A stretch of 49,237 nt of DNA from an uncultured Verrucomicrobiales bacterium (lineage in GTDB: Bacteria > Verrucomicrobiota > Verrucomicrobiia > Verrucomicrobiales > Akkermansiaceae): contig CAXIBU010000001.1 in NCBI GenBank assembly GCA_964021555.1, forward strand, positions 1 to 49,237, read 5' to 3'. Position 1 is the first letter of the stretch. Each line of letters starts with the position of its first letter. The notes under the pieces were generated by a model. It was not told where the DNA came from and did no database searches. It worked only from the letters and a program-made list of their open reading frames with translations. This document shows positions 2,476 to 34,348 of the stretch, one piece after another. A program made the translations under genes and the position numbers.

Positions 2476-3381
2476 TTATCGGCGAGGGATAATCCTTAGG
2501 TTCCCCATGCCTGCGTCTCCAGGCTTAAGATTATTTCTCTTGAGGCGCTCAATCAGGTCATCAGGAATCGCGTCAAGATCGGCATCTTCGTTGTAAGGAC
2601 CTTCATAAAGGAGCTTACCTTCCTGATCAAACATAAGAAGATTGGTCTGATCACCCTCACTCTTAAGCTCGATCTTCCCATCGGCGTCAGGGATGATGCG
2701 TGCTGAAGATTGCTGACCGTTGTTACCTTCCATGCGGAATTCGAAACGCTGAACTTCTTGGCCCGGTTTGACATGCAGCTCGAAGCGTTCCTCGATTCCT
2801 TCAAATCGGTCCTCAAGCTGCTCTGCCTGCTTAAGAAGCTGCTTGCGCATTTGATCGAACTCACCTTCGGGCATGACCTGCTCCAACTGGCGGAGCATTT
2901 CTTGCTGTATATTGCCGTTACCTAGTTGGGCCATTCTCTGGTCAGCAGGGCGTTCGCCGAGAGTTGCTTTGAGCTCCTGTTCTTCGCCACCTCGCAAAAC
3001 CTGGAGCGTGACTTCGTCACCCGCATTCCGCTTGGACATGGACTTCATCACGTCGAGCGGTGATTTGATGTCTTTGCCATCGACCTGCAGGAGGATGTCA
3101 TTCTTCTTCAAGCCGCTGGACTGAGCGGGGCTATCCCCTACCACTCCTCGAATGACTGCGCCTTTCTTCAGCTCAGGCATCTGCGCTTTTAACAGCTCTG
3201 GGAGGTCAGTGGTGTAAATTCCCAAATAGCCCGGTTGCTGTTCCTTTTCTCCGGCTTCATTTGCCGCTGGCACTGGTGGGTTCTTAGGAGCAGCAGGATC
3301 TGCCTCACCGGAACCTTCGATTGCCATGGCGGGTAAGATACCCGAGACAGCCAATAGACATAATTGCTTTTTGATATTCAT
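2476..3381 (-). CDS. Secreted PDZ-domain protein
   Basis: Signal peptide MNIKKQLCLLAVSGILPAMA. PDZ-like core GAVIRGVVGDSPAQSSGLKKNDILLQVDGKDIKSPLDV. It is the last gene of the ECF sigma module. Confidence 0.8.
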   Translation of the reverse strand: MNIKKQLCLLAVSGILPAMAIEGSGEADPAAPKNPPVPAANEAGEKEQQPGYLGIYTTDLPELLKAQMPELKKGAVIRGVVGDSPAQSSGLKKNDILLQVDGKDIKSPLDVMKSMSKRNAGDEVTLQVLRGGEEQELKATLGERPADQRMAQLGNGNIQQEMLRQLEQVMPEGEFDQMRKQLLKQAEQLEDRFEGIEERFELHVKPGQEVQRFEFRMEGNNGQQSSARIIPDADGKIELKSEGDQTNLLMFDQEGKLLYEGPYNEDADLDAIPDDLIERLKRNNLKPGDAGMGNLRIIPRR

Positions 3382-3488: not shown

Positions 3489-4379
3489 TTAATGAGTCTC
3501 AACAGGAACGGTGCAACGGCGCTTGCCTCGTGGTCGTTCAAATTCGCGCTGACGCCCTTGCTCGTCGATCAAGATCATGCGCTCGACCTGCTCGAACTCA
3601 AACTGGCGGTGCGCTTGGTTTTGACCATCCAAAACAAGACCTTGGTCCTGGGGTGAACGGACTCCGGATTCCAAACTTGCCGGAACCAGTTGTGGCGACA
3701 TCAGGCTGGCAAAAGCAGGCAGACTAGGGACTGCTTCAAGATTTGAATCCAAATTCGGTGCATCGGAAGCGGGTGATTCGACAGGGGTTGCTACAAATTG
3801 ATTCGGTGTGGCTTCCTGGAAGCCTGGCAGAAGGACACCTAGCACAGCCCCGACGACTGCGACAGCAGCAGCGACTTTGATCAATGGACTGGACTTTGAA
3901 GTCTGTGGCAAAGGTCGCCCGGGGAAAGCTAGAACTTTGCCTTCGTCTGGTGCGCCGACGCTCTCAGACGTCTCCCCCCCAGAAACCGCATCCATTTTGC
4001 TGATCAAGTCTTCGAAAAGCGCAGGATTTAGGGAAGCTGGTGTAATTTGGGAAAGCGGGCGTGAAGCGTCCATCTGATTGACCACCTCTTGGCCTTTGGT
4101 GAAGCTCAACGGGCTTGGCTGGAATTTTTGGGCCCATTCGGACTCTGTGATTCCATCTCGTTGGGCACTTTCAAAAGTCTCAGCTTGTTGTGGATGAAGC
4201 GGCTGCGGAACACCGAGACGCAGTCTAGCCTCCACCGCTGATTGCGCTGGCGAGAGGTGGTGTGCGGATTCCGAAAAGGCATCCATTTCAGCGGCAAGCG
4301 TGAGCGGCAGGTTACCGTTGAGAGCACGGGGAACCATTCCGCTGAGAGCGGTTTCAATGGTTTCAGTTGAAATAGACAT
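3489..4379 (-). CDS. Putative anti-sigma factor (single-pass membrane protein)
   Basis: It lies immediately downstream of the ECF sigma gene (35-nt gap). One TM helix (LIKVAAAVAVVGAVLGVLLPG) sits mid-protein. No recognisable zinc anti-sigma motif, so the call rests on context. Confidence 0.45.
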   Translation of the reverse strand: MSISTETIETALSGMVPRALNGNLPLTLAAEMDAFSESAHHLSPAQSAVEARLRLGVPQPLHPQQAETFESAQRDGITESEWAQKFQPSPLSFTKGQEVVNQMDASRPLSQITPASLNPALFEDLISKMDAVSGGETSESVGAPDEGKVLAFPGRPLPQTSKSSPLIKVAAAVAVVGAVLGVLLPGFQEATPNQFVATPVESPASDAPNLDSNLEAVPSLPAFASLMSPQLVPASLESGVRSPQDQGLVLDGQNQAHRQFEFEQVERMILIDEQGRQREFERPRGKRRCTVPVETH

Positions 4380-4414
4380 GATGGACTGGAGAGTTGTGGG
4401 GATATGACTGAGGC

Positions 4415-4999
4415 TTAGAATTCGCCGCGATTCTGGGCGACTTCGAGTTTCTTCCTCAGGGCTTCGATGCCATAGCGATACCGAGAGGCTGCCGTGTTTG
4501 GAGAAATTTCGAGAGATTCACCGATTTCAGCAAAAGTCTGTTCACCCCAAATTTTCAGAACGATGACTTCACTGAATTTGGCTGGAATTTCCTTGAGATA
4601 GACTTCGAGAAGCTGACGAGTTTCATCATCTGCCCCCTCGGACTCGAACCAAGGATCATCACTGGGATTGTGGATCTCCTCGTCTTGAACGACGCGGTCC
4701 TCCCTCTTTTGGCGACGATCGCTCTTGCGACCAAAGTCGATCGCCAAGCGACGGATGGACGCGTAAACAAAAGGCAACCAAGCTTGCTGGCCACCAACGA
4801 AAACGCCGTCGTGCACCTTACGAGCCAACTTTATGAGAGCCTCCTGAAGGACGTCCTCGGCGTCAGCCAAACTTCGAGTTTGCTGCCGAGCAAACAGCAG
4901 GAGCTTGTTTCCATGCTCATCAACCCACTCCCGCCACGAGGCTGGAGCGCTGGAGGTATCTTCTTGGGTCACGTTTGATGCAGTCGTTTGTTCAAGCAT
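4415..4999 (-). CDS. ECF-type RNA polymerase sigma-70 factor
   Basis: Region 2 (DAEDVLQEALIKLARK) and a region 4 HTH (TFAEIGESLEISPNTAASRYRYGIEALRKKL). 194 aa. Confidence 0.9.
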   Translation of the reverse strand: MLEQTTASNVTQEDTSSAPASWREWVDEHGNKLLLFARQQTRSLADAEDVLQEALIKLARKVHDGVFVGGQQAWLPFVYASIRRLAIDFGRKSDRRQKREDRVVQDEEIHNPSDDPWFESEGADDETRQLLEVYLKEIPAKFSEVIVLKIWGEQTFAEIGESLEISPNTAASRYRYGIEALRKKLEVAQNRGEF

Positions 5000-15148: not shown

Positions 15149-15502
15149 TTACTTGGACGCCGGCTCTGGGACCTCGTCAGTTAGGATGATAGTAAGGTGG
15201 CTGCTGCGCTTCTTGATCGCACCTGCAGAACCACGGGCACGTGGCTTGAAGCGCTTGAAGGCGGGGCCCTCATCAACCACTGCTGAAAGAACGATCATGT
15301 CGTCAGCGATCAGGTCGTGGTTGTTTTCTGCGTTAGCTACAGCAGACTTGAGAGTCTTGCCGATGAGCTGGGCAGCTTTCTTGGGGGTGTAGGTGAGAAT
15401 GTCAAGCGCGGTCGAAACCGGTTGACCTTGAATTTCACGTGCGACATCGCGTGCCTTTTTGGGCGAGATGCGGGCGTATTTGTAGACGGACTTCACTTCC
15501 AT
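15149..15502 (-). CDS. rplV: 50S ribosomal protein L22
   Basis: YKYARISPKKARDVAREIQGQPVSTAL...RAGAIKKRSSHLTIIL. Confidence 0.95.
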   Translation of the reverse strand: MEVKSVYKYARISPKKARDVAREIQGQPVSTALDILTYTPKKAAQLIGKTLKSAVANAENNHDLIADDMIVLSAVVDEGPAFKRFKPRARGSAGAIKKRSSHLTIILTDEVPEPASK

Positions 15503-15526
15503 GGGATTTGCTCCTGTATAGATTCG

Positions 15527-16264
15527 TTAAGGGTTGACGGTGGTGACGGACGCGACGTCACCGTGGCGCACACCGTCATCCTGTTGATCGAGTTTTTGGA
15601 CAAAGACGCCGCAGATACGATCGCGGACGTCGGTAACAATTGTTTGAGCGACGCGTTCGTCGCCGCGAAAAATGCCAAATTGCATCCCGATGCGGGCACC
15701 ACCAGCGGAGCCGACATTGAGAACGACCAGGCCGCTCTCATCATCGATGCTGACGACGCGTGCATCGCTAAGCTCCCCTGCCCCTGGCTGGTCCGGTGCT
15801 TGTCGGAAGCCAAGGGCGAGCTCCATGGCGCGCAACTGGGCTTCGACGGTGGACCGGGCTTCGGGATCGGAATTAACGCTCTGCTTGAGGAAATCAATCA
15901 CACTTTGGGAGAGCTGGATGGCTGCCCCTTCGACCTTGAGAAGTCGATCGTTAAGTGACTGAATCTCGGCGGTGGCTTGAACGAGTTGTTCGTCGCGACC
16001 GGCGATGGCATTTACTCCGAGAGCTTCGAGCGTCTGACGTGCCTCCTTCAAGGCAGTCTCCTGTTCGGCAGCTTCACGGGTGGCCCGTGCATAGCTGGCG
16101 GTCAGGGCGCGGTTGCGTTGCTCCTGCTTCGCGAGCTGTTGCTCGAGGCGCTGGAGTTTCTGCTGAAGCTGCTCTTTGGTCACGTCCTGGGCACTGGCCA
16201 CACTAGCAGAGCCAACGGCGATAGCCGCGAGCAAGCTGAGAGATGTGGAAGTGATGAAAGACAT
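15527..16264 (-). CDS. Secreted coiled-coil protein with a C-terminal beta-rich domain, inserted between rpsS and rplV (hypothetical)
   Basis: Signal peptide MSFITSTSLSLLAAIAVGSASVASA|QD, then about 110 aa of Q/E/A/L-rich heptad-like sequence. The C-terminal part is ARVVSIDDESGLVVLNVGSAGGARIGMQFGIFRGDERVAQTIVTDV. The gaps are 39 nt to rpsS and 24 nt to rplV. Confidence 0.75.
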   Translation of the reverse strand: MSFITSTSLSLLAAIAVGSASVASAQDVTKEQLQQKLQRLEQQLAKQEQRNRALTASYARATREAAEQETALKEARQTLEALGVNAIAGRDEQLVQATAEIQSLNDRLLKVEGAAIQLSQSVIDFLKQSVNSDPEARSTVEAQLRAMELALGFRQAPDQPGAGELSDARVVSIDDESGLVVLNVGSAGGARIGMQFGIFRGDERVAQTIVTDVRDRICGVFVQKLDQQDDGVRHGDVASVTTVNP

Positions 16265-16303
16265 GACTAGTGGAGAGTAATTTGGCTTTTGCTAGATTAA
16301 GGC

Positions 16304-16573
16304 TTACTTTTTGCCGACACCGCCGTGTGCTTTGAAGATGCGTGTTGGCGCAAATTCACCGAGCTTGTGTCCGACCATGTTTTCAGTCACGTAAACGGAG
16401 ACAAATGCTTTGCCGTTGTGAACGTGGAAAGTGTGGCCGACGAAGTCAGGCGTGATCATGGAGGCGCGGCTCCATGTCTTGATTGGTTTGTGGCTGCCGG
16501 ATTCCGCTGCTGCATCAATTTTGACGAGGAGCTTCTGATCGACGAAAGGGCCTTTTTTGAGTGAACGTCCCAT
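16304..16573 (-). CDS. rpsS: 30S ribosomal protein S19
   Basis: [16 protein letters not shown]...[27 protein letters not shown]. Confidence 0.95.
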
Positions 16574-22162: not shown

Positions 22163-22537
22163 TTACTTCTTAGGGCGCTTCGTGCCGTATTTAGAACGAC
22201 CTTGTTTGCGGCCGTCTACGCCGAGCGTATCGAGAGCACCACGAACGATGTGGTAGCGAACACCAGGCAAATCCTTAACCCGTCCACCACGGACGAGAAC
22301 GATGCTGTGCTCTTGGAGGTTGTGACCTTCACCGCCGATGTATGCGATGACTTCTTCACCATTGGTCAAACGGACCTTGGCCACTTTACGAAGAGCCGAG
22401 TTAGGCTTCTTCGGAGTGCGGGTCATTACCTGAAGGCAGACCCCGCGACGTTGCGGGCAGTTTTGCAGCGCGCGACTCTTCGACTTTACGACGGGAGTCT
22501 TGCGTCCTTTGCGGACGAGTTGGTTGATGGTAGGCAT
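22163..22537 (-). CDS. rpsL: 30S ribosomal protein S12
   Basis: I trimmed the ORF-track ORF (22163..22732) to the internal ATG at 22537. From there the protein reads [13 protein letters not shown]...KPNSALRKV, the canonical S12 N-terminus. Confidence 0.93.
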
Positions 22538-22857
22538 GATTTCCTGCTTGGTTGAATTTCGGGCATTGACCCTAGGTTGTAGGGTGCAATCGGAAGGCCG
22601 CGAATTCTTCGCAGGAGCCTGTTTTCCGGAGCTGCACCCGATAGTTATGCGTAACTGGATTAAGCGCTCGAGGTCCAAAAGGGCTTTCGGGCGCGATGTA
22701 GGGGGGCGGAGACTAGGAAAAAACCTTGTCACCGCAAGTCTTATTTTGATCTTTTTTCAAAAAAACCGAAAAAGTCCCCTAGATCCACTAAATTGAGGGC
22801 CTGAAAATTTATTTTGTAAGACTTAACAAATGACGTTTCGTATGGCAAAGAGACGTC

Positions 22858-23364: not shown

Positions 23365-23979
23365 TCAGGCCGTTGCTGTTTCGGGAGCGACCGGCGGATC
23401 GCTTGGGCCATCCGGATTACGCAGGCCGTGAATAAAGAAACAGACCGCAGCCACGCAGATACAGGAGTCGGCAACGTTGAAGACCGGATAGTTGTAGTTG
23501 ATGAAAGGGATGATCACATCGAGAAAGTCGACCACGTAGCCTTGGCTCAGGCGGGTCCAGAACGAGGCGTCCTTAAATTCTTCGAGAAAGAAACCCTGAA
23601 CCATGCGATCAGTGAGGTTGCCCAGGATCCCCGCGACTAACAATGAAGCCGCCGCTTTCCCCAAGAATCCATTGAAGCCTCCCTTTTTCCAATACCAAGC
23701 AATGAGGGTCAGGGCGATTAATGGGATCAAGAAGAACACAATCGGCGCCCAAGCCGTCCCGTTGCCAAAACCAAAGGCGACGCCCGTGTTGTGAACTCTG
23801 GTGAAGCTGAACAAGCCTTCGACCACCGGCCTGGAGTCAATATAGCTCAGAAACACCTCTCCATCCCGCTCAACGTAGACAGGCGGCTCAAAGTCAAAAA
23901 CAACCCAGAATTTGGTAACCTGATCGAGGAGATAAAGCGGCAGGGAAACCGATAAAAAGAGTCGCAGGGCGCTAGACAT
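23365..23979 (-). CDS. lspA: Lipoprotein signal peptidase (signal peptidase II)
   Basis: Motifs LDQVTKFWV, VHNTGVAFGF, NLTDR, VVDFLDV and PVFNVADSCI. I chose the ATG at 23979 as start, because the longer ORF to 24069 would overlap the divergent gene. Confidence 0.85.
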   Translation of the reverse strand: MSSALRLFLSVSLPLYLLDQVTKFWVVFDFEPPVYVERDGEVFLSYIDSRPVVEGLFSFTRVHNTGVAFGFGNGTAWAPIVFFLIPLIALTLIAWYWKKGGFNGFLGKAAASLLVAGILGNLTDRMVQGFFLEEFKDASFWTRLSQGYVVDFLDVIIPFINYNYPVFNVADSCICVAAVCFFIHGLRNPDGPSDPPVAPETATA

Positions 23980-24017
23980 GGGACTACCTATCAAGGCAAA
24001 TCGAGTTGGTAAAGAGC

Positions 24018-24878
24018 ATGTCTGCAAGTAAGGAACAGTTTTTTCAGGAGGCCAGGCGAGTCCTTTCAAGGCACTTCAATCAGCAAAGGGTGGAATTCGC
24101 GACGGGGCTCATCGTGGAGGTGCCGATCAGGTTCGTCGCCAAGCGTCCACGGAAGACGAAGCTGGGCGACTGTGGCCTCAGCTCGGATCGCTCTCACTTT
24201 CAGGTCACCTTCACTCAACCTGACCCCAAGGGCACTGGAGATCGCTCCTACCTGACCTTGATCCATGAAATCGCTCACGCGCTGACCGACACTCGCCATC
24301 ATGGCCGACGCTTGAAACCTCATGGGCTCGAGTGGAAGACCATCTTTGGAGAAATTATCGTGAAAGCGGTTCAGCTAGAACTCTTCAGCCCTGCCTTGAG
24401 GGGACCTCTACTCAGACACGCTAGAAATCCGGCAGCCCGTTCAGGCGTCGATAGTGACCTTGAACGTGCCTTTTCAGAAATTGAACAGGATCCAGATGCA
24501 CCGAGCCTTAGAGTTGAAGATGTGCCGATGGGACATTGGTTTCAATTGGGTGACGGCAAACACTTTCGGCGCGGCATACTCCGCCGGACTCGCTATCTCT
24601 GCACCAACCTCAAAGGCCAAGAGTATGTCATCTCCGCTGGAGCAAAAGCTCAATCAGTGAGTAAGACAGCTCCAGTTATGGAAACAATAACATCAAGCCG
24701 ACCCGAGAAGGGAACTCTTGAATCCTTGGCAGAAGGCCGCCGCTTCAAAATAAAAGGCCCCTTGATTTTCACCAAGGGGCCTCGACTGAGAAAGTATTTC
24801 AGGTGTGCTGCTAGCGATGGGAAGACCTATCGAGTCCACCCGAAGGCACCGGTCCAGGTCATCAGCGGTGACGAATGA
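24018..24878 (+). CDS. SprT-like zinc metalloprotease-domain protein with a duplicated C-terminal module
   Basis: HExxH in YLTLIHEIAHALTD followed by HGLEWK. I prefer the ATG at 24018 over the TTG at 24006. The 3' end overlaps the secretin 3' end by 17 nt. Confidence 0.7.
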   Translation: MSASKEQFFQEARRVLSRHFNQQRVEFATGLIVEVPIRFVAKRPRKTKLGDCGLSSDRSHFQVTFTQPDPKGTGDRSYLTLIHEIAHALTDTRHHGRRLKPHGLEWKTIFGEIIVKAVQLELFSPALRGPLLRHARNPAARSGVDSDLERAFSEIEQDPDAPSLRVEDVPMGHWFQLGDGKHFRRGILRRTRYLCTNLKGQEYVISAGAKAQSVSKTAPVMETITSSRPEKGTLESLAEGRRFKIKGPLIFTKGPRLRKYFRCAASDGKTYRVHPKAPVQVISGDE

Positions 24879-27156
24879 CGCGACGCGCCCAATCTGGGCT
24901 GTGACGGCCGATTTGCTGCTGCTTCACTACCGGGTCACCGCCCTTTCCGTCGTTAATCTCGACAGGCGTTGCAGAGGGAGCGTAAGGCTGATTAAAGTCC
25001 ATGATTCGCTCGTCGACTTCATAGAGCGCATCGATCTCGCGCTGGCTTTGGTCAAGATCCTCATCGCTATTGATGATCTCGGGTTGAATGAAGATCAACA
25101 GCTCTCGAGTAATTTCAGCTTTTCTCGTGGTGCTAAAGAGCGAGCCCAAGCCTGGGATATCGCTCAAGAAAGGCACCCCGCTTTTGTTGTCGGTCATCTC
25201 ACGAGTGATCAGACCACCCAAAACGATGGTCTGACGGTTCTTGACCGTTACCGTTGTCAGAAGTTCCTGCTTAGCAATCGTCGGGACCGACAATCCATCT
25301 ACCTGTTGGCCATCGTCGATAATCTGGTCATTCAACTGGGAGATCTCCATTGTGACCTCGTTGTCCGAATTTACCAACGGGACTACCTCAAGGCGCAACT
25401 CGACATCTCGGTATTCGATGTTGGTATTCTGGGCGAGCCCTCCGGTGCCACCTACTGCTTGGTTGATGGTGCTAGTCGGGACTGCGATTCGAGTTCCTGA
25501 AGAGATGACTGCTCTCGTGTTGTTCTTAGTGTAGATCGTCGGACGAGAAAGCACGGTGAAATCCCCCCGAACTGCTGCGGCACGAAGGTAGACGTTCAAA
25601 TAATTACCTATTTGGCCGTAGAGACTCAGACCAGCAAGACCAAAGGGACCTCCCTCAGTTCCGATGGCACCCTGTCCGAGATTAGCGTCATTGATGGGCC
25701 TAACATCACTCGGGGGATTTCGGATCGAACCAGCAATACTTCCACCCTCACTCAAAGTCCTGATCCAGTCGAGACCCAGCTCGTTGCTATCATTGCGCGT
25801 GTATTGGCCGAAAACGGTAGAAATTACGACCTGAGGTCCGGCTTTATCGATCTCATCCAGCAGATCGTTAATAATCTTCACGCTCTGTGGCGGGCCTTGG
25901 ACAACGATGCTGTTGGTGATTGTATCGGCAACGAGGAAGGTTTTGCCAACCAAGAGGGATTCAGGAGCGCCAGTCTGCCCGGGGTCACTCAACTGGTTAC
26001 CACCACCGCCATCTGCGCCGTTGGTGTTGCCGCCACGATTGTTGGTGTTTCGTGTGTTGTTGTTCCGATTATTGGTGCGGTTACCGGCGCCACCGGCTTG
26101 GCTATTGCTCGAAACTTCCACCCGACTGAGGGCGTTCTCAGCGACATCGAGAAAATCGACCACCGTCAAAAAGCGAAGCTTACGAGAAAAGAATCCATCG
26201 CGAGAAGTTGGCGCATCAAAGCGTCCGATCAATTCACCAAGGAAAATAAGCTCACTAGGCGGCCCGATAAGCAGGATGCTGTTCTGACGAGCATCCGTGG
26301 TGATAATGGTCGGAGCAGCTGTCCCCCCTCCGCCACTAGCAGCACCGGATGTATTCGCAGCGCCATTGACTGGGGGTAATCCGGGAGGACGATTATTCCC
26401 AGAATTGTTATTGGTCTGTGGTGTTCCCGCTCTGGCGGACCGCGCAGGGCTCTGATCCTCCCGCTGAGCCTGAGTGATTGCCGTAAGCTTTTCTGCGACC
26501 AACTCTGCATCAGCATTGACGAGATCGAACCATTTTCGGTCCAAAGTGCTGGAGGGCACATCGATCTGAGTCTTCAATTCGATGAACATCTTAATCAGTG
26601 ATGATGTCTCCTTAATCACCAGCGCAGAGGCATTCTCGACGACCGTAATCTTGCCGTATGGGTGCAAAACTGTCATCTGTGAGAACATTCGCTGAGCTTC
26701 CTCAGGTCTGATGTAGCTTAGCTTCATTACGTAGCTAACCAAGTTATCACCATCAGGAAGATCGTCCGCATTTACCACCAAAGGAATTGCACTGCCTTTA
26801 TCCCCTGCGGAGACCACCATCAACTTCACCTCGTTGGGACCGCTTGGAATGAAGACGAGATTGTTCAGAGCGGCAGCCTTTTCAACGGCAGCGATCTGAG
26901 CGGCCTTATCATTATTGGCTTCTTGAAGAATGGTGATATTGACCTGAACGATTGCGGCTTCGGGATCGACAATGACGCGTTTGCCAGTCTGGGCAAAATA
27001 GTAGGCGCCAAGCTCGGTGCCCGTCATCTTAGGTTGGAAAAACGCGGCACCTTGTGCTCCGGGTGCTGGTGGAGCTGGCGGAGCGCCGGGGGCCTGTGCT
27101 TGTGCAGAACCGACGGCGGCCAGTGCAGCGATGAGGGTGAGAGAAAGAACTTTCAT
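24862..27156 (-). CDS. gspD: Secretin (GspD/PilQ family outer-membrane channel)
   Basis: Signal peptide MKVLSLTLIAALAAVGSAQA, and a C-terminal secretin core with GVPFLSDIPGLGSLFS. It is the last gene of the pseudopilin operon. 764 aa, with two low-complexity inserts. Confidence 0.9.
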   Translation of the reverse strand: MKVLSLTLIAALAAVGSAQAQAPGAPPAPPAPGAQGAAFFQPKMTGTELGAYYFAQTGKRVIVDPEAAIVQVNITILQEANNDKAAQIAAVEKAAALNNLVFIPSGPNEVKLMVVSAGDKGSAIPLVVNADDLPDGDNLVSYVMKLSYIRPEEAQRMFSQMTVLHPYGKITVVENASALVIKETSSLIKMFIELKTQIDVPSSTLDRKWFDLVNADAELVAEKLTAITQAQREDQSPARSARAGTPQTNNNSGNNRPPGLPPVNGAANTSGAASGGGGTAAPTIITTDARQNSILLIGPPSELIFLGELIGRFDAPTSRDGFFSRKLRFLTVVDFLDVAENALSRVEVSSNSQAGGAGNRTNNRNNNTRNTNNRGGNTNGADGGGGNQLSDPGQTGAPESLLVGKTFLVADTITNSIVVQGPPQSVKIINDLLDEIDKAGPQVVISTVFGQYTRNDSNELGLDWIRTLSEGGSIAGSIRNPPSDVRPINDANLGQGAIGTEGGPFGLAGLSLYGQIGNYLNVYLRAAAVRGDFTVLSRPTIYTKNNTRAVISSGTRIAVPTSTINQAVGGTGGLAQNTNIEYRDVELRLEVVPLVNSDNEVTMEISQLNDQIIDDGQQVDGLSVPTIAKQELLTTVTVKNRQTIVLGGLITREMTDNKSGVPFLSDIPGLGSLFSTTRKAEITRELLIFIQPEIINSDEDLDQSQREIDALYEVDERIMDFNQPYAPSATPVEINDGKGGDPVVKQQQIGRHSPDWARRVIRHR

Positions 27157-27198
27157 TGAGAGATTTGGGTCAGAGGAGTGATGGCAAGGTGAGGAAGC

Positions 27199-27744
27199 TT
27201 ATCGATTTGTTCGTGAGCGGAGTGCTCGTGCGGGCTGCTGGGGGTCCTTTCCTTTGACGCCCGGCGGAAGTTTTTGATTACCGCTTGGCTTCTTGCCTCC
27301 CTTGCTGGGCGAAACCATCGCCTGCGGCTCGGGAACACCGAGGGCGGCAAGATCGAAGCTGAGCCATTCGGTGCGCGCGCCAGACTTGATCTGCACGCGT
27401 GTCTTGGTTGGGTCGGCATTTGTCTGAACTTGCAACAACTCGAACCCGCTCTCGCTGCGCTCACCGATCCCGCGCATCATTTCGCTGCGCTCTTTTTCCT
27501 TTTTGTGGCGAAGGGTCACAAAGTAGCTATCGCCCAGCGGCAGGATCCCGGAAAGATTCCAATCCTCAAAAGCTGATGCTTGCTCAACTTCCTGGCCTTT
27601 ATTGGGCTCGACAATCGGAGGCAGAGTAAATGGCGAATTTCCTAGGAGGCGATTATAATGCATCAGCGTCTGCTGGCGGGCAACATCTGCCGAGGCCAAG
27701 CCTAGGAGCACTGGGGAAAGTAGGATTAAGAGATACGCTTTCAT
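27199..27744 (-). CDS. Periplasmic PilP / GspC-HR-like protein (hypothetical)
   Basis: Signal peptide MKAYLLILLSPVLLGLASA, a beta-rich core (WNLSGILPLGDSYFVTLRH...FELLQVQ...RVQIKSG), and a basic Pro/Lys-rich tail. It sits directly upstream of the secretin. The call rests mostly on context. Confidence 0.45.
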   Translation of the reverse strand: MKAYLLILLSPVLLGLASADVARQQTLMHYNRLLGNSPFTLPPIVEPNKGQEVEQASAFEDWNLSGILPLGDSYFVTLRHKKEKERSEMMRGIGERSESGFELLQVQTNADPTKTRVQIKSGARTEWLSFDLAALGVPEPQAMVSPSKGGKKPSGNQKLPPGVKGKDPQQPARALRSRTNR

Positions 27745-27750
27745 AAAAAA

Positions 27751-28428
27751 TTAGGATTGAGAGGCTTTAAGACCTGGCGGGAGACCCGGGGCGGTAGGGG
27801 CTGCTGGTTGAGGGGTCGGTGTAGTCGGAGCAGGCGGACTAGTCGGGGCCGGGGTTGAATTTGCTGGCTCTTCCGGAAGGTCTTCGACGGCTTCGTTTCC
27901 TTTAGGGATGAACCATTGGTCCACCTCAACCACAGCATCCACCTTGGTATTGGTTTCATCCCCTGGCATTGGCTTCAAGGTCAGGCGTGTGACACTGCGG
28001 AACGATTTAGGATCCGACAGCTGGGTCAAAAACAAGATCATGTCCCGCTCCACCCCTCTGACATTGAGGCTCACTCTTTTTCGGTGGTAGTATTCCCCAG
28101 GCGCTGGATCTGAAATTCGAGGTGACTTGATGGTTTCCAAGCGGTTCTGCGAGAGTTTCTGTTGGCAGACTTTCAGCAACTGATCCTCCACGATAATGGC
28201 TCGCTGAGCTTCCTTGGGCTCATTCTTCTCTAAGAATTCGGCCAAATCGTCCCTGCCCTCGGCAAACTTGATGGCAAACTCGTTCTGCTTAAGCTCAGCT
28301 TCGGCGTCCCTGATCTCAGCTCGCAGCTCTTCGCCCTTCGCTTGGAACGACTTGAAACCGACCAGCGCACCAACAACCAGCAGGGCCGAGCCGAGCAGGA
28401 TGGATAAATTACGTTCGCGGGTGGTCAT
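27751..28428 (-). CDS. GspM/PilO-like bitopic inner-membrane protein
   Basis: N-terminal TM helix LSILLGSALLVVGALVGF, then a coiled coil, a periplasmic domain and a Pro-rich tail. It has a 4-nt overlap with the upstream gene. Confidence 0.5.
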   Translation of the reverse strand: MTTRERNLSILLGSALLVVGALVGFKSFQAKGEELRAEIRDAEAELKQNEFAIKFAEGRDDLAEFLEKNEPKEAQRAIIVEDQLLKVCQQKLSQNRLETIKSPRISDPAPGEYYHRKRVSLNVRGVERDMILFLTQLSDPKSFRSVTRLTLKPMPGDETNTKVDAVVEVDQWFIPKGNEAVEDLPEEPANSTPAPTSPPAPTTPTPQPAAPTAPGLPPGLKASQS

Positions 28429-29675
28429 GAATCGGTCTTTTCAGAAGTTTTGAGATTAAGAAGCCAGGTAAACTCCCACATTTTCCGACTGTTTTGCTCC
28501 GAAGTCGGTGTCTCGAAAGTGTAAGCGTCTCGGAGACTACGGTTTCGTTCAAGCAAGGTTTGGAATGACCCGATTGCCGAGCGATTGGTGTCCTGGGCCT
28601 GCCCTTTGATCTCGATCTGACTAGGCAAGCCCTTGTCATCGGAAAATACGCTGAATTCGCTAAATCTGACCTTGCGCCCGGCAGGCAAGCACATGGCGCA
28701 CTCCAAGAGCAACTGTTGCGGCCACATGTCATTGTCAATCAGGGGCTGGAGTTCATCTGCCTTGGCGAGCAACTCCTTGGCATCGCTGGCATCCGCCTGG
28801 GTTTCGGCCACATCTTCTTTCAATTGAGCCAGAGTCTCACGATCTTTCAGGTAATCCTTGCCGACGAACAAGATGCCACCAATCAAGGCCAAAAGAAGAA
28901 CGACCCCTGCCGCGATCATCTGCAGGCGCTTGCGTGATTCCCGGCGCTCAGCGGCAACATCCGCAGGGAGCAGACCGCCAAGCTGGGCAGGCAAGGTAGG
29001 CGCGGGCTTGGGCTCCTGAGAGACTGGCATTCCGAGCGCCTGTTCAAATTCGCTTGCGGGCACCTTGGTATCCCACAGCACCACCCTAAAGTCGTCATTG
29101 ATCAGGCCCTGCATTTGCAACTGGGCTTGAGCCAACTGCAATTCGCGGGCAACCGAAGCCCCAAGCCGCGCCTCTTTGAGCGCTTGGAAATACACGACTT
29201 CACCCTCATCGTAGACAGCAAAGACCCAAGACCCGAATTCCATCCAGACTGCCACCACCTGCCCCTGAGGGCGGAATAGGCGGGCAGACAGCTCGAAATT
29301 GGCAGGCGAACGCCGTGGCATGTCCCGCTCCGTCTGCAATCGCAGCACCACCGCGAGCACGCGACTACTCTCCTCACCACGACTGATGATGTAATGATCA
29401 CTAAGCTTACCGGCACCCGGGTTAGGCATCACCCCGAGGCGCTCGTAGTGCATCTCGCTCAGTTCGACGAGCAGTTCCTCATCAGTGGTTGGAGCCACGA
29501 AAGGCAGGGCTGTTGCCTCCTTGACCGAAAAGGCGAAAACGAATGGCGCGGGAGGCGGCTTCGGCAATTCCGATGCACGCTCCACCTCATAAGTCTCGGT
29601 GCATTGATTGCCTGACCACAGCTCCCAGCCACTAGCGCCGGGAACCAGCAGGTGCTGATTGTTTTTTTTGCTCAC
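28425..29675 (-). CDS. GspL-like (or PilM-PilN fusion-like) assembly-platform protein
   Basis: A cytoplasmic domain of about 250 aa, a single TM helix (MIAAGVVLLLALIGGILFVG) and a periplasmic domain of about 150 aa. It has a 4-nt overlap with gspK. Confidence 0.55.
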   Translation of the reverse strand: MSKKNNQHLLVPGASGWELWSGNQCTETYEVERASELPKPPPAPFVFAFSVKEATALPFVAPTTDEELLVELSEMHYERLGVMPNPGAGKLSDHYIISRGEESSRVLAVVLRLQTERDMPRRSPANFELSARLFRPQGQVVAVWMEFGSWVFAVYDEGEVVYFQALKEARLGASVARELQLAQAQLQMQGLINDDFRVVLWDTKVPASEFEQALGMPVSQEPKPAPTLPAQLGGLLPADVAAERRESRKRLQMIAAGVVLLLALIGGILFVGKDYLKDRETLAQLKEDVAETQADASDAKELLAKADELQPLIDNDMWPQQLLLECAMCLPAGRKVRFSEFSVFSDDKGLPSQIEIKGQAQDTNRSAIGSFQTLLERNRSLRDAYTFETPTSEQNSRKMWEFTWLLNLKTSEKTDS

Positions 29676-30631
29676 GGAAGGATTTCTTCGTTTCTCATTA
29701 AAATTGATGGCCTACCCGTTCGGTTACGCAAGACCAATGTGATTTTCCAGCGGCTTTCCCCCACCTCGCCGATACTAACGATGCGGTCGGTTCCGTCCTC
29801 AACGGTCAGACGGGGAGTGGCCAGCTCGCGATCAATTAAAGGAACGCCTAGCAGGTCAAAGGCTGCATTCAAATCTTCAATTGGGACATCGTCTTCGGTG
29901 AAGCGAATTCCATCCGGCCCCTTGATGCGGTCAACCAGCTCTTGAGCTGCCTCGACACTCCCCCGGACCGCCGCCGCAATCAGTTCAGGCTCAGCCTCGT
30001 TGATGTCCAACTGACCCGAACTCCAGATAGTGAACCAATTCTTCCAATCGGGCCTTGCCTCCATCACCAAGCCAAATCCACGAACCAGTTCGGCTTCGGA
30101 CAGATCATAGAAAGGACGGTTGAAGGGGCGGTTCGAGTAGCCTTTGCGCTCGTAGTAGTCGATCTCAGCCCCATTCAAGCGGATCGAGGTATCCTCATCT
30201 ACCCAGTCGGCCAGCGAATCATAGATCATCTCGGCATCGTCTAATTCGATGCCCCAATCGACGAACAGTCCAATCATCAGATCACGGTCCTCTTGGAGGA
30301 GGATGGCATTGAGATTGAAACGCGCTCCTTCGGACTCGATGGTTGCGCGGAAACCTCCGCCTTCGTTTTCAAAGTATTGTTCCAGCAGTGGATCTCCCGG
30401 CTCGATGACTGCATTTGCTGCAATCGCGACTCCGCGCTCAGCCAAGTGTCGGGCGCGGACACCGTGGATTCTCGAGGTCATGAGGTCGGTATCAAAGCTG
30501 ACTACCGTCATGGCTGCAAAGATTGCCAAACTAAGGATCCCAATCAACCAAAGCACAGCCACCAAAGCACTGCCGCGCATCACCGCTGAGCGGCGCACGG
30601 AATGATCGATGTTAGGATCCGGGAGATACAT
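29672..30631 (-). CDS. gspK: Type II secretion minor pseudopilin GspK-like
   Basis: N-terminus RGSALVAVLWLIGILSLAIF, and a later GQLDINEAEPELIAA segment (the iNiNtA-type motif of GspK). About 300 aa. The start could instead be the Met at 30580. Confidence 0.8.
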   Translation of the reverse strand: MYLPDPNIDHSVRRSAVMRGSALVAVLWLIGILSLAIFAAMTVVSFDTDLMTSRIHGVRARHLAERGVAIAANAVIEPGDPLLEQYFENEGGGFRATIESEGARFNLNAILLQEDRDLMIGLFVDWGIELDDAEMIYDSLADWVDEDTSIRLNGAEIDYYERKGYSNRPFNRPFYDLSEAELVRGFGLVMEARPDWKNWFTIWSSGQLDINEAEPELIAAAVRGSVEAAQELVDRIKGPDGIRFTEDDVPIEDLNAAFDLLGVPLIDRELATPRLTVEDGTDRIVSIGEVGESRWKITLVLRNRTGRPSILMRNEEILP

Positions 30632-30676
30632 GCTTGGATTCGTAGAGCGCCTGTAGAGCGGGCTCCTTGTTTGTTT

Positions 30677-31528
30677 TTATCGCTGTCTTGTGGGAGGCAC
30701 TCGTGGAGGTGTGCCCCCTTGAGACGGAGCATCACCTCCGCCCGGCTGCCCCCCGCCTTGGCCCGGGGTTCCGGGGGCTCCGGGAATTCCAGGGGCTTGA
30801 CCACCCCCTCCGGCACCACCTTGTCGAGTGCCGAGCTGGCGCATCAGCGCGACGGGATTCTGCTTGGGGGGGATCCAGAAGATCTGTCGAAAATTCTCCT
30901 CACTGTCACCAAAAGCCACGTCCAGCTGAAGTAGAACTGGCTGGCGAGCTGGATTCTGCCATTCGTTAATCCACTCACTCGTTCGCTGGTCAAGCACCTG
31001 CCACTCGAACCACCGCACCCCTTCCAAGAGAACTACCGAGGCGATTGGCTCAGCCTGCTCATCGAACCCCTCTTCATTTCCATCTTGAGTTTCATTGTTT
31101 TCCTCAAGAATCTCGATGTCGTAATACTTCAAGACCACGTCAAGAAATCCGTCACGGCGGATCACCGTATCAATCTGCACTGACTTCACCGCTTGCTGAT
31201 TACCACCCCACGAAAAGATCATCGGGAAGTTCTGCAGGGTCAACTGGGACAAGTATGGCCCATTGCCTGGAGGATCATCAAAAGTCAGGTCGACCACCGC
31301 ATTTCCAGGCAATTCGGAGAACTGCTTCTTCATGAGATCAAAGAAGGCCTGCCGGTGCATGGTCTCACGTTGTTTCTCCACCACGGCACTGCTGTGCTGC
31401 AACATGATCTGGGCAAGGAGAAATACCGTGCCAGAGATTCCGGCCAGAATCCCCAAAGCAAAAATGATCTCCAGCAGACCGAAACCTGCTGTAGCTCTGC
31501 GCCTAAATCGTGGATTGAAAGCCTTCAT
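30677..31528 (-). CDS. GspJ-like minor pseudopilin with a Gly/Pro-rich C-terminal tail
   Basis: Prepilin-type N-terminus RRRATAG|FGLLEIIFALGILAGI. The size and position between the I-like and K-like genes fit GspJ. Confidence 0.65.
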   Translation of the reverse strand: MKAFNPRFRRRATAGFGLLEIIFALGILAGISGTVFLLAQIMLQHSSAVVEKQRETMHRQAFFDLMKKQFSELPGNAVVDLTFDDPPGNGPYLSQLTLQNFPMIFSWGGNQQAVKSVQIDTVIRRDGFLDVVLKYYDIEILEENNETQDGNEEGFDEQAEPIASVVLLEGVRWFEWQVLDQRTSEWINEWQNPARQPVLLQLDVAFGDSEENFRQIFWIPPKQNPVALMRQLGTRQGGAGGGGQAPGIPGAPGTPGQGGGQPGGGDAPSQGGTPPRVPPTRQR

Positions 31529-31932
31529 TGATATAGTCGGCTGTAGCGCCAGGTTTCAGCGGTTCGCTCGACTGGCTCACCATCCACATTGAAGCGAGCA
31601 ATCACCTGCACCCGCAGGAGCCCCGTCACCACTTGCCCTTCTTGACTCTCGAGATCCTCGATTGTTTCGACCACGACCTGCATCTCGATACCGTCCATTT
31701 CTTCGAGCTGATAATCGTAAACGATCGGCTCGAGGATTGGCAGCATCGCGGCATCAGTCAGTGCGCTATCCAAAATCCGCTGAATTTCGCCCTCACGCCG
31801 CCCGTAATCGGACAACTGGGCGACTTGATACATCGCCAGAGTAAATGCCGTCACTGCCCCTGCAAGAATCCCCAAGGCCAATAGGACCTCCAGCAAGACA
31901 AAACCTTTACGTTTGAGACGACGACCCTTCAT
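31525..31932 (-). CDS. GspI-like minor pseudopilin
   Basis: Prepilin-type N-terminus MKGRRLKRKG|FVLLEVLLALGILAGA. 135 aa, with 4-nt overlaps on both sides. Confidence 0.7.
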   Translation of the reverse strand: MKGRRLKRKGFVLLEVLLALGILAGAVTAFTLAMYQVAQLSDYGRREGEIQRILDSALTDAAMLPILEPIVYDYQLEEMDGIEMQVVVETIEDLESQEGQVVTGLLRVQVIARFNVDGEPVERTAETWRYSRLYQ

Positions 31933-32513
31933 CGAAATTCGTAGCGCTCCTCCGCCATTGCGCCCGTCAGGGGATTATACCGATGTTTGATCCAGCCATT
32001 CTCGGCACGAATCCTCACCTCCACTGGCTCTACCAATCCCTCAGGGCGGAACTCCCAGACGAAGGTATTATCTCGCTCAAGCACCAGCCAATCCTGATTC
32101 CACCCCTTGACCTCGAGCGTCATTCCCTCTGGCAGATCGAAGCGATCACGGATCATTTCGAACCGTTGAGGGCGCTGTATTTCTTCATCCTGATCGAATA
32201 AGCTCAGCTCTTCTTCCTCTTCCTCCAGTGGATCGCCAAAAACAGGTTCCAGCGTGATTCCAAATTCGTCAAAGACCAGCTGATAAGACCTCCGCTGCAT
32301 CAGTGACAGAGACCGAGCCCGCTTGGAGAACCCTTCGACTTGGGTGATTGATTCCCGAAACTTCGCCTCATCATCTCCGCTGCGCATGGCAACGATGCCG
32401 ACGACAAAGATCATCGCCACGATGGACATCGCAATGACCAGCTCTATTAAGCTGAAACCCGGAGCAGCTTTGGCAGATCCGGGTTTCGAAGAAAATGTGG
32501 GACGGTATTTCAG
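31929..32513 (-). CDS. GspH-like minor pseudopilin (start codon unresolved)
   Basis: The first ATG (32429) lies inside the hydrophobic helix. The in-frame upstream sequence reads ..KAAPG|FSLIELVIAMSIVAM, a prepilin cleavage/methylation motif. I tentatively placed the start at the CTG at 32513; the alternative is the ATT at 32516. Confidence 0.6.
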   Translation of the reverse strand: MKYRPTFSSKPGSAKAAPGFSLIELVIAMSIVAMIFVVGIVAMRSGDDEAKFRESITQVEGFSKRARSLSLMQRRSYQLVFDEFGITLEPVFGDPLEEEEEELSLFDQDEEIQRPQRFEMIRDRFDLPEGMTLEVKGWNQDWLVLERDNTFVWEFRPEGLVEPVEVRIRAENGWIKHRYNPLTGAMAEERYEFR

Positions 32514-32528
32514 AATGAGCGCCTGACT

Positions 32529-32981
32529 TTAGTTAGTCCTTTTCTTCTGACTCGAGAGATCATCCTCGGTGCCAAGTTCTCCGTCCGGTCCCATGGAAAT
32601 GATCTCGGGACGATTCGGCTTGATCGTGCCCTTGCGCTTGTAAACGTAGTCATTTTCCCAAGGATCCTTCGGCACGCCGTCCTCCATGATTGGCACGTAG
32701 TTCTGTGGGATCGGTGCTGAAGTTGGCTTCTCGACCAGAGCTTGGAGCCCCTGATTGTCCGATGGGTAGGTATTGGCCATCGTTTTGTATTGCATGATCG
32801 CGGTGGAAATCGAGCTGAGATCAGACTGAGCTTTTTGGATCTTCGCTGCCTCGCCGACACCCCCCATCATGAAAATCGCTCCACCAAGAATGAGAGCAAT
32901 GATACCCATAACAATGACCATCTCCAGAAGAGAGAAGCCTTTATTGGAGCGGAACGGGGTCGGATTAGATGGAATTTTCAT
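32529..32981 (-). CDS. gspG: Major pseudopilin GspG
   Basis: Prepilin motif SNKG|FSLLEMVIVMGIIALI and GspG-typical PKDPWENDYVY. 150 aa, first gene of the operon. Confidence 0.9.
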   Translation of the reverse strand: MKIPSNPTPFRSNKGFSLLEMVIVMGIIALILGGAIFMMGGVGEAAKIQKAQSDLSSISTAIMQYKTMANTYPSDNQGLQALVEKPTSAPIPQNYVPIMEDGVPKDPWENDYVYKRKGTIKPNRPEIISMGPDGELGTEDDLSSQKKRTN

Positions 32982-33224
32982 ACAATGTCAAAGTTGATCA
33001 GTTATAGAACGATGGGGGAGCGATAATTTGTTCCAAAAAGGTGGCAATGAGAAGTCTTTTCATCGCCTGTCAGACGGATTTCGCTAGTCGGCTACCTTTT
33101 TGTCGAAAAAGGCAAATTCCGCCTTTCAAGACGACACGTCTTCCTCTATCCGTCTTGGTTTATACGCTCAAGGCATCGCCGCGGGGCGGAGCTCGCCACT
33201 AACAGGCCATTCCTTTTTCTCACC

Positions 33225-34301
33225 ATGTCTGAATACACACTCTCCAGCGTCGACGACTACCTTAAGATTTGTCAGCAATACGATGCCTCTGACCTTCACC
33301 TCGCGACCGCAGCCGCTCCCACCTGGCGCCGCTACGGCACCCTCTCACCAATCTGGCCGGAGGCTCCAAAACTGACCGCCGCTCAAACCGAGACTTTGAC
33401 CATGAAGTTTCTCGGAGAAAAAGAGAAAGAGATCCTCGAGAAGCGCGGTGATGTCGACTTTGCCTACGCGACCGATTTTGGCCGTTTCCGTGCTTCGGTC
33501 GTCAAACAACGTCTCGGCTACGACCTAACCTTCCGCATCATTTCGACCAACATGCGGTCGATGGAAGAGCTTGGCCTCCCTGATTCCCTCATTCCTCTAA
33601 CCCGTTACCACAACGGCCTCATCTTGGTTACCGGCGCAGTCGGCTCAGGCAAGTCCACCTCTCTCGCCGCCCTAGTTGACTTCATCAACAAGGACCGCGA
33701 GGACCACATCATCACTTTGGAAGATCCGATCGAATACGTGATCGACTCCAAAAACTGCCACGTCAACCAGCGAGAGGTCCACACTCATACCGAGTCCTTC
33801 TCCAAGGCCCTGCGTGGCGCCCTCCGGGAAGACCCGGACGTCATCATGGTTGGTGAAATGCGCGACTTGGAAACCATCTCCCTCGCCCTGACCGCCGCGG
33901 AGACAGGTCACTTGGTTCTCGGCACCCTGCACACGGGTAATGCCGCTCGGACACTCGACCGGGTGCTCGACGTTTTCCCTACCGATCAGCGCGAGCAAAT
34001 TCGGATCATGGTATCAGAATCATTGCGCGGCATTGTTTCCCAGCAGCTCATTCCGCGAGCCGACGGAGAAGGCCGCGAGCTCGCCCTTGAGTTACTAGTT
34101 AATACCGCAGCGACCGCCAACTGTATCCGCGAGGGCAAGACCTTCATGCTTCCAGGCGTCATGCAGACCGGTAAAAACGTCGGCATGGTTACCATGGATG
34201 AATCCATCAAGAACCTCTACATCAAGGGCACCATCACCCAAGAAGAGGCCCTCTACCGCTGTGAGGACAAGACCAGCATGCGCGAATTCTTCACCAGCTA
34301 A
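33225..34301 (+). CDS. pilT: PilT-family (type IV pilus retraction-type) hexameric ATPase, copy 1
   Basis: 358 aa. N-terminal ASDLHL, Walker A GAVGSGKST, Walker B/Asp box DPDVIMVGEMRD, His box TGHLVLGTLHT and a C-terminal ANCIREGK motif. There is no GspE-type N-domain or tetracysteine. Confidence 0.85.
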   Translation: MSEYTLSSVDDYLKICQQYDASDLHLATAAAPTWRRYGTLSPIWPEAPKLTAAQTETLTMKFLGEKEKEILEKRGDVDFAYATDFGRFRASVVKQRLGYDLTFRIISTNMRSMEELGLPDSLIPLTRYHNGLILVTGAVGSGKSTSLAALVDFINKDREDHIITLEDPIEYVIDSKNCHVNQREVHTHTESFSKALRGALREDPDVIMVGEMRDLETISLALTAAETGHLVLGTLHTGNAARTLDRVLDVFPTDQREQIRIMVSESLRGIVSQQLIPRADGEGRELALELLVNTAATANCIREGKTFMLPGVMQTGKNVGMVTMDESIKNLYIKGTITQEEALYRCEDKTSMREFFTS

Positions 34302-34348
34302 TCCGCCCCACACTCTTCCCTTTTTCTAATTTTCTCTGCACACATCCC

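Follow-up and report, generated by a model that had tools for sequence, protein, structure and literature searches.

Here we describe a conserved, unannotated gene that lies between rpsS and rplV, the genes for ribosomal proteins S19 and L22, inside the S10 operon of Verrucomicrobiota. We analyzed it in a contig of 49,237 nucleotides (nt) from an uncultured Verrucomicrobiales bacterium of the Akkermansiaceae (GenBank assembly GCA_964021555.1, contig CAXIBU010000001.1; this whole stretch is hereafter the window), in which an earlier sequence-only reading had pointed to an open reading frame (ORF) at this junction. Few gene orders in bacteria are as rigid as that of the S10 operon, and the adjacency of S19 and L22 is near-universal. 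The gene, which we call gene X, is an ancient and, as far as seen, lineage-specific passenger that holds a fixed place between rpsS and rplV in Verrucomicrobiota, in at least the classes Verrucomicrobiia and Terrimicrobiia, and it is under purifying selection. We hold with high confidence the descriptive part of our account, a fixed junction gene whose product has a predicted leader, a helical hairpin and a FlgT_C-type barrel. We regard two things as new here, the architecture into which a known type of domain is built and the stable S10 operon variant that encodes it; no earlier description of X or of an S19–L22 junction gene was found in the searchable literature.

Gene X occupies positions 15527..16264 on the minus strand and encodes, from an ATG start, a protein of 245 amino acids (aa) that belongs to a conserved hypothetical family with a predicted exported coiled-coil and FlgT_C-like architecture. 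It is preceded directly by rpsS (16304..16573, minus strand) and followed directly by rplV (15149..15502, minus strand), and neighbors matching Pfam Ribosomal_S19 and Ribosomal_L22 flanked it in all loci. The same-strand 245-aa ORF and the two gaps are exactly as the sequence-only reading had given them. The rpsS–X spacer (16265..16303, minus strand) is 39 nt long, A-rich and unstructured, with no terminator, promoter or clear Shine–Dalgarno sequence, and the X–rplV spacer (15503..15526, minus strand) is 24 nt long, with no terminator and with an AGGAG Shine–Dalgarno sequence for rplV. The same reading had seen no terminator or promoter-like spacer here, and a consensus scan likewise found no minus-strand promoter-like or terminator-like site in either gap. 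RNA folding of the spacers was no better than that of shuffled sequences (z = +1.3 for the 39-nt and +0.3 for the 24-nt spacer), and Rfam gave zero matches across the whole window. The single minus-strand terminator-like site, at 15626 to 15609 with a 5-bp stem, falls within gene X, and the total of 5 terminator-like sites, compared with 2.5 ± 1.5 in shuffles, is at chance level.

In its shared strand, its short gaps and the lack of any signal between it and its neighbors, X has the features of a member gene of the S10 operon. The gaps flanking it, as called, ranged from 3 to 89 nt in ten tabulated loci (nine fetched loci and the window). Because the spacers are short, unstructured and conserved, co-transcription is the simplest reading, and we infer from these sequence features that X is co-transcribed with the ribosomal protein genes. 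Non-ribosomal passengers have a precedent nearby: further downstream, the cluster in the window also contains secY, adk and map. The sequence-only reading had gone further and proposed expression at ribosomal-protein levels, for which we found no support: codon adaptation, calculated relative to the window's ribosomal genes, was 0.65 for X, near the 0.62 of SecY, compared with 0.69–0.81 for the ribosomal genes and 0.41–0.62 for most other genes. Shine–Dalgarno pairing was weak throughout these operons, and X could not be separated from its neighbors by it. Codon adaptation argues for expression of X that is high but not ribosomal-level.

X lay at the rpsS–rplV junction in every locus examined. 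The order S19–X–L22 on one strand was present in 20 of 20 individually fetched loci, with homologs of like length and architecture. These loci came from Verrucomicrobiia metagenome-assembled genomes (MAGs) from peat and other sites (L001–L011), from Rubritalea squalenifaciens DSM 18772 and the complete Sulfuriroseicoccus oceanibius genome, from a Haloferula-like contig and a close relative found in a sequencing run, and from a Terrimicrobium-like contig of 628 kb and four other divergent lineages. Across 80 metagenome loci of marine, freshwater and soil origin, S19 was immediately upstream in all 68 that were testable and L22 immediately downstream in 76 of 76, in a sample biased to the Verrucomicrobiales-type subfamily because the scan patterns came from the narrower alignment of that subfamily. 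A scan of genome contigs, which used coiled-coil patterns of one clade, returned only 6 Verrucomicrobiia MAGs.

Named carriers of X are R. squalenifaciens, R. halochordaticola, S. oceanibius, Persicirhabdus sediminis, Luteolibacter sp. SL250 and a Terrimicrobium MAG; in the NCBI taxonomy, Rubritalea and Sulfuriroseicoccus belong to the class Verrucomicrobiia and Terrimicrobium to the class Terrimicrobiia. The S3 protein of the window is 82% identical to that of R. squalenifaciens, and L2 identity drops to 58% for the most distant carrier. In the same genome pairs, X proteins were 30–43% identical, compared with 57–85% for L2, S19, L22, S3 and L16, indicating that the insertion is old and that X evolves much faster than its neighbors. 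That X has been held at the junction across this deep divergence and in two classes, despite its fast evolution, points to selection on co-expression and not only on the protein.

Two further departures from the usual layout were seen in the ribosomal clusters of relatives. In R. squalenifaciens DSM 18772, a 154-aa ORF with no Pfam match lies on the opposite strand between the L24 and L5 genes of its spc operon (L012:5960-6424), a second break of the canonical ribosomal order; the window does not have this ORF. In two other loci L22 was called at 230 and 238 aa (L013:2780-3472 and L020:3334-4050), compared with 100–158 aa elsewhere, and these copies seem to carry long C-terminal extensions, because homology to the L22 of the window spans only the first ~110 residues.

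A word-indexed search with X found 35 homologs of 233–270 aa, and a profile of diverse X members found 299. When a profile of the C-terminal domain was searched against 1.84 billion representatives, 1,874 clusters (at 50% identity) matched at E ≤ 1e-3 and 395 at E ≤ 1e-10; the best 150 matches were mostly proteins of 215–300 aa with the domain at the C-terminal end. Copies of X in the databases are named "hypothetical protein" throughout, barring a few spurious, coiled-coil-driven names in JGI records. The ratio of nonsynonymous to synonymous substitution (dN/dS) was 0.13–0.26 for X (Nei–Gojobori, 21 pairs), with the helical part and the barrel both constrained, and ~0.02–0.2 for S19 and L22 in the same pairs. 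The GC content of X (0.59) and its GC content at third codon positions (GC3; 0.64) are inside the operon range; with a base composition typical of the operon, the gene shows no sign of recent import. The sequence-only reading had named absence from relatives, lack of purifying selection and misassembly as outcomes that would speak against the ORF. The ORF is conserved in relatives, the dN/dS values attest to purifying selection, and recurrence in more than 100 independent assemblies rules out an assembly artefact. X is therefore a real, conserved protein-coding gene that annotation does not recognize.

Curated resources return little for the X protein of the window: nothing beyond coiled-coil noise (such as SMC, DivIC and FliH) came from Pfam, NCBIfam or PDB sequences, and PADLOC and PHROGs gave only weak matches (DrmC at 19 bits; an Rz-like spanin at E = 0.002), which we read as noise from the coiled coil or the architecture. 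The signature protein CT421.2 of the Planctomycetota–Verrucomicrobiota–Chlamydiota group was ruled out as X, being a different protein of 53–80 aa. Three database proteins (P0330, P0373 and P0294) are fusions or mis-calls in which the X barrel is joined to S19 or to L22. S19 sequence opens P0330 and L22 sequence closes P0373, the same neighbors that X has, and the fusions probably arise from frameshifts or fragmentary contigs. On the plus strand, two ORFs run antisense to X, at 15317-15958 (213 aa) and 15977-16270 (97 aa); we treat them as by-products of GC-rich coding sequence because nothing supports them as genes.

The product of X begins with a predicted Sec-type signal peptide (residues 1–25; 16190..16264, minus strand), read from the sequence in a region of low model confidence. 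It consists of MSFITSTSLSLLAAIAVGSASVASA, ending in SASVASA directly before the residues QD, and in the window it has no basic n-region. A heuristic scan found a signal-peptide-like N-terminus in ~76 of 87 members of the X family, with an uncharged stretch of median length 16 residues; a lysine or arginine preceded the hydrophobic stretch in 73 of the 87, an AXA-like site was present in 80, and a lipobox in only 4. As far as this heuristic can tell, a leader like the one that the sequence-only reading had placed here is kept in most of the family. From the leader we infer that X is exported to the periplasm.

We modeled X with AlphaFold2 using the alignment of 87 sequences (mean predicted local distance difference test score, pLDDT, of 86). 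In the model, the low-confidence leader is followed by three helices, a linker and a six-strand beta domain. The helices (residues 27–83, 91–128 and 134–151) make up a predicted coiled-coil hairpin at residues 27–151 (15812..16186, minus strand; pLDDT ~85–97 over the helices), in which hydrophobic residues occupy 0.69–1.0 of the heptad a/d positions compared with 0.33–0.50 of positions overall. In our reading, which follows the order of secondary structure and not the coordinates, helix 1 would run antiparallel to helices 2 and 3, giving arms of ~57 residues each, or roughly 8 nm as estimated from helix length. The sequence-only reading had described a coiled coil of about 110 residues; the heptad-periodic helical region is there, and it is longer than described, as the predicted antiparallel hairpin extends over residues 27–151.

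At the predicted turn between helix 1 and helix 2 lies a short motif (residues 77–83; 16016..16036, minus strand) that reads QTLEALG in the window and LR.EALG in the family consensus; residues A81, L82 and G83 are invariant or nearly so in three alignments. This turn, the barrel, and patches on helices 1 and 2 are the most conserved parts of X. Segment lengths are well kept despite the drift in sequence: from tip to barrel the median across the family is 88 residues (interquartile range 84–89), and the barrel itself has a median of 75 (interquartile range 74–75).

The C-terminal domain is modeled as a six-strand beta-barrel (residues 167–241, with strands within 168–240; 15542..15766, minus strand; pLDDT 91–98) with the family consensus L.VLNVG...G.R.GM.F...RG......V.DVR..I.GA........GD. 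Pfam FlgT_C (PF16538) matches 19 of the 87 members at E ≤ 0.01, the best at 9e-6, and the other Pfam matches are coiled-coil noise. Among the proteins that the X-domain profile retrieves are multi-copy ones that score above the FlgT_C gathering cut-off (27 bits) in their own right: P0321, of the BlaR1/M56 type, matches the X profile at E = 1.7e-19 and FlgT_C at 43.2 bits, and P0382 and P0307 reach 32.1 and 27.3 bits. A deeper profile of the domain aligned to the FlgT-like C-terminal domain of TsaP (3jc8_Ta) at E = 0.014, covering the whole domain in two pieces, and to the periplasmic adaptors MexC-like (E = 4e-5) and MexA (0.1) over a 34-residue beta-hairpin only.

Foldseek searches of the PDB with two models of X, an approach that the sequence-only reading had proposed for this domain, matched FlgT structures, namely 8z5n_0 from the Vibrio LP-H-T ring (5.3e-4) and the crystal structure 3w1e (1.4e-3). 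The best matches were to the N-terminal barrel of F1-ATPase alpha/beta (1.2e-4 and 3.5e-4), and Listeria MreC (2j5u) was matched at E = 4.2e-3 over 133 columns spanning helix and barrel, with a root-mean-square deviation (rmsd) of 17 Å. From the Pfam, profile and Foldseek results we conclude that the barrel is distantly related to the periplasmic domains of the FlgT_C/TsaP type and is a predicted member of their family. Of the likenesses to MreC, NfeD and FlgT that the sequence-only reading had seen in the C-terminal module, that to FlgT has held up, that to MreC comes down to the weak fold match, and that to NfeD found no support. Elsewhere, the X-type barrel occurs in tandem (P0321, P0307, P0382, P0400): a 692-aa membrane sensor of the BlaR1/peptidase-M56 type has three copies, and small lipoproteins have two to four.

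We propose, tentatively and as the least certain part of our account, that X is a growth-coupled periplasmic scaffold or strut. The account taken as a whole has in our judgment about an even chance of being right, and for the scaffold mechanism we put the odds lower. Co-transcribed with ribosomal genes, X would be synthesized in proportion to growth rate, as SecY is from the neighboring spc operon. The protein would act as a structural element of the periplasm: its barrel could serve for docking or for assembly with other copies of X, the part that FlgT_C-type domains play in the flagellar H-ring and in the secretin spokes of TsaP, and the length-conserved hairpin would point its conserved tip at a partner, which might belong to the outer membrane, the cell wall or some envelope machine. 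In its most ambitious form, which we consider improbable, the proposal makes X a phylum-defining component of the Verrucomicrobiota envelope. X would then be a fixed-length strut, abundant in the periplasm, and its place in the S10 operon would tie its dosage to the synthesis of ribosomes. Such a strut might determine or preserve the spacing of the periplasm or the anchoring of the outer membrane to the cell wall; Lpp-type tethers have this role in other Gram-negative bacteria.

Several observations weigh against the scaffold proposal and against the account behind it. The call of a signal peptide is heuristic and not made with SignalP, and the annotated starts of the Rubritalea protein (P0241/P0242; L012:2377-3099) differ, giving 240 aa in GenBank and 221 aa in RefSeq; the RefSeq start, 19 residues later, strips most of the predicted signal peptide. 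The codon adaptation of X lies below that of all 15 ribosomal reference genes. The X protein of the window itself has no Pfam FlgT_C match, and the fold matches reach only modest E-values (1e-4 to 1e-3), with the generic N-terminal barrel of F1-ATPase at their head. Its fast evolution could also fit a less critical role. Carrier sampling, finally, left out Akkermansia, Opitutales, Methylacidiphilales, Kiritimatiellota, Lentisphaerota, Planctomycetota and Chlamydiota, so that neither "phylum-wide" nor "absent elsewhere" is established for X.

Other roles can be weighed against the same evidence. X might be a ring component associated with a secretin or pilus, a functional analogue of TsaP whose barrel would form spokes around a secretin and whose hairpin would reach towards the inner-membrane platform. 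The alignment of the X-domain profile to the TsaP FlgT-like domain fits this idea, as does the arrangement of the FlgT-like domains of TsaP, which are reported to form spokes around the PilQ secretin (bioRxiv 10.1101/2020.05.29.123786). The window also encodes a secretin with a type II secretion system/type IV pilus-like cluster ~9 kb upstream of X (24862-35455), but this proximity may be coincidence. X was linked to ribosomal, and not pilus, genes in every locus examined, no member carries LysM, and X has one barrel compared with two in TsaP. We regard a secretin-associated role as unlikely.

It is quite unlikely that X serves cell-wall synthesis as a scaffold of the MreC or divisome kind, with an anchor, coiled coil and barrel that would organize periplasmic enzymes. 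The overall layout is the same and the Foldseek match to Listeria MreC takes in helix and barrel, but at 17 Å rmsd; weak DivIC/FtsL-like coiled-coil matches were seen, and the multi-copy relative P0307 matches Pfam MreC weakly (E = 1.5e-4, below cut-off), whereas none of the 87 X members matches Pfam MreC (PF04085) at E ≤ 0.01. MreC has an uncleaved membrane anchor and two barrels, unlike X with its short, cleavable-looking leader, and X was never found beside mreB or mreD in the loci examined.

We also considered whether X could be a minimal periplasmic adaptor, similar to membrane-fusion proteins, whose hairpin tip docks on an outer-membrane channel. An alpha-hairpin with a conserved tip recalls that of adaptors, in which the tip carries an RLS motif, and besides the profile matches to the MexC-like protein and MexA there was a weak NCBIfam match of the HlyD type (E = 0.023). 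However, the PDB matches are limited to the 34-residue beta-hairpin motif, Pfam HlyD/adaptor domains matched none of the 87 members, X has neither a lipoyl domain split around the hairpin nor a membrane-proximal domain, and no transporter genes are adjacent, leaving this a very unlikely function.

A cytoplasmic or ribosome-associated factor would suit the strictly conserved position inside the S10 operon; X would then act in translation or co-translational targeting, and its hydrophobic N-terminus would tether it to the membrane or stem from faulty annotation. The later RefSeq start in Rubritalea and the presence of the cytoplasmic F1-ATPase barrel among the top fold matches could be read in its favor. 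We find it highly improbable, as the leader and its AXA-like site are conserved at the protein level in ~76 of 87 members, X, in contrast to ribosomal proteins, is acidic and rich in glutamine and glutamate, its sequence changes at two to three times the rate of its neighbors, and homologous domains occur in lipoproteins and in the periplasmic parts of BlaR1-type sensors. That X is non-functional, whether an ORF that arose by chance, a product of misassembly or a recently acquired mobile insertion, could draw on the long antisense ORFs of this GC-rich region and on the want of a curated family match for the window protein, but has next to no probability and is excluded by the comparative data, given the same junction in more than 100 independent assemblies, the low dN/dS, a confident AlphaFold2 model, GC and GC3 typical of the operon, and no phage or defence matches beyond noise.

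Directly upstream of the str–S10 ribosomal cluster lies the type II secretion or type IV pilus-like cluster mentioned above (24862-35455). It includes the secretin (24862-27156, minus strand), a GspK-like protein (29672-30631), a GspG-type pseudopilin (32529-32981) and two PilT/GspE-type ATPases on the plus strand (33225-34301 and 34349-35455). An ORF at 28425-29675 weakly resembles the PilM-like family of Akkermansia Amuc_1101 (E = 4e-4, far below cut-off), and several other ORFs of the cluster have no family match. A lipoprotein signal peptidase gene lies at 23365-24069. The mechanically called ORF for S12 (22163-22732, minus strand) opens with a GTG start ~80 codons before its Pfam S12 match (residues 83–188), and the true start is probably internal. 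Downstream of the ribosomal cluster, on the minus strand (2476-3381 and 3489-4999), are a secreted PDZ-domain protein and a 296-aa ORF with no family match, together with an extracytoplasmic function (ECF)-type sigma factor (4415-4999, minus strand); the three may form a small envelope-stress module.

Gene X is a concrete and genetically tractable candidate for tying envelope construction to growth rate, and cultured carriers are at hand in Rubritalea, Luteolibacter, Persicirhabdus and Sulfuriroseicoccus. The coupling of envelope growth to translation capacity, which the sequence-only reading had raised, is speculation, with a precedent in secY, adk and map. If X were a strut, it would, to our knowledge, be the first case of an exported structural protein with a permanent place in a bacterial S10 operon, and it would amount to a direct genetic link from translation capacity to envelope growth; if it were a minor periplasmic protein, the finding would shrink to a curious but stable operon variant. 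Whatever its role, X defines an unannotated protein family, with ~395 clusters that match the domain profile at E ≤ 1e-10. It may serve as a simple synteny marker for Verrucomicrobiota, and it flags recurrent annotation errors in the form of shortened starts and S19–X or X–L22 fusions.

Compared with known systems, X resembles several envelope proteins in part, but for each of them it lacks one or more of the defining features; it is therefore neither FlgT, TsaP nor MreC, and no efflux adaptor. The C-terminal domain of FlgT (PF16538), a protein of the Vibrio flagellar H-ring, is, as the X barrel is predicted to be, a small periplasmic beta-barrel; X differs in its coiled-coil hairpin and appears to lack the "finger" subdomain of FlgT-C. 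As a candidate FlgT, X was rejected: none of the 87 members has a FlgT_N or FlgT_M match, and the neighbors are ribosomal and not flagellar in every locus. TsaP, a secretin-associated protein of type IV pili, is likewise periplasmic and has a FlgT_C-like barrel, whereas X has a long coiled-coil hairpin, a single barrel in the model and no LysM match, and sits in the S10 operon and not with pilus genes. With the rod-shape protein MreC, X shares the layout of an N-terminal hydrophobic segment, a coiled coil and a small beta-barrel, but X has a single barrel and a leader that looks cleavable, and it is flanked by rpsS and rplV and not by mreB or mreD. Periplasmic adaptors such as MexA and MexC combine an alpha-helical hairpin with a beta domain in the periplasm, as X is predicted to do; they have a series of lipoyl, barrel and membrane-proximal domains that X does not, and X, which matched no HlyD-family Pfam model and met its PDB profile match over only 34 residues, has no transporter neighbors. 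In its genomic setting, X is most readily compared with secY, adk and map, which are also non-ribosomal genes in the ribosomal cluster and are presumed to be co-expressed with it, secY being a gene of envelope biogenesis. Those genes are near-universal, lie at the operon end and have known functions, whereas X interrupts the S10 operon midway, at the S19–L22 junction, is predicted to be exported and belongs, as far as seen, to one phylum.

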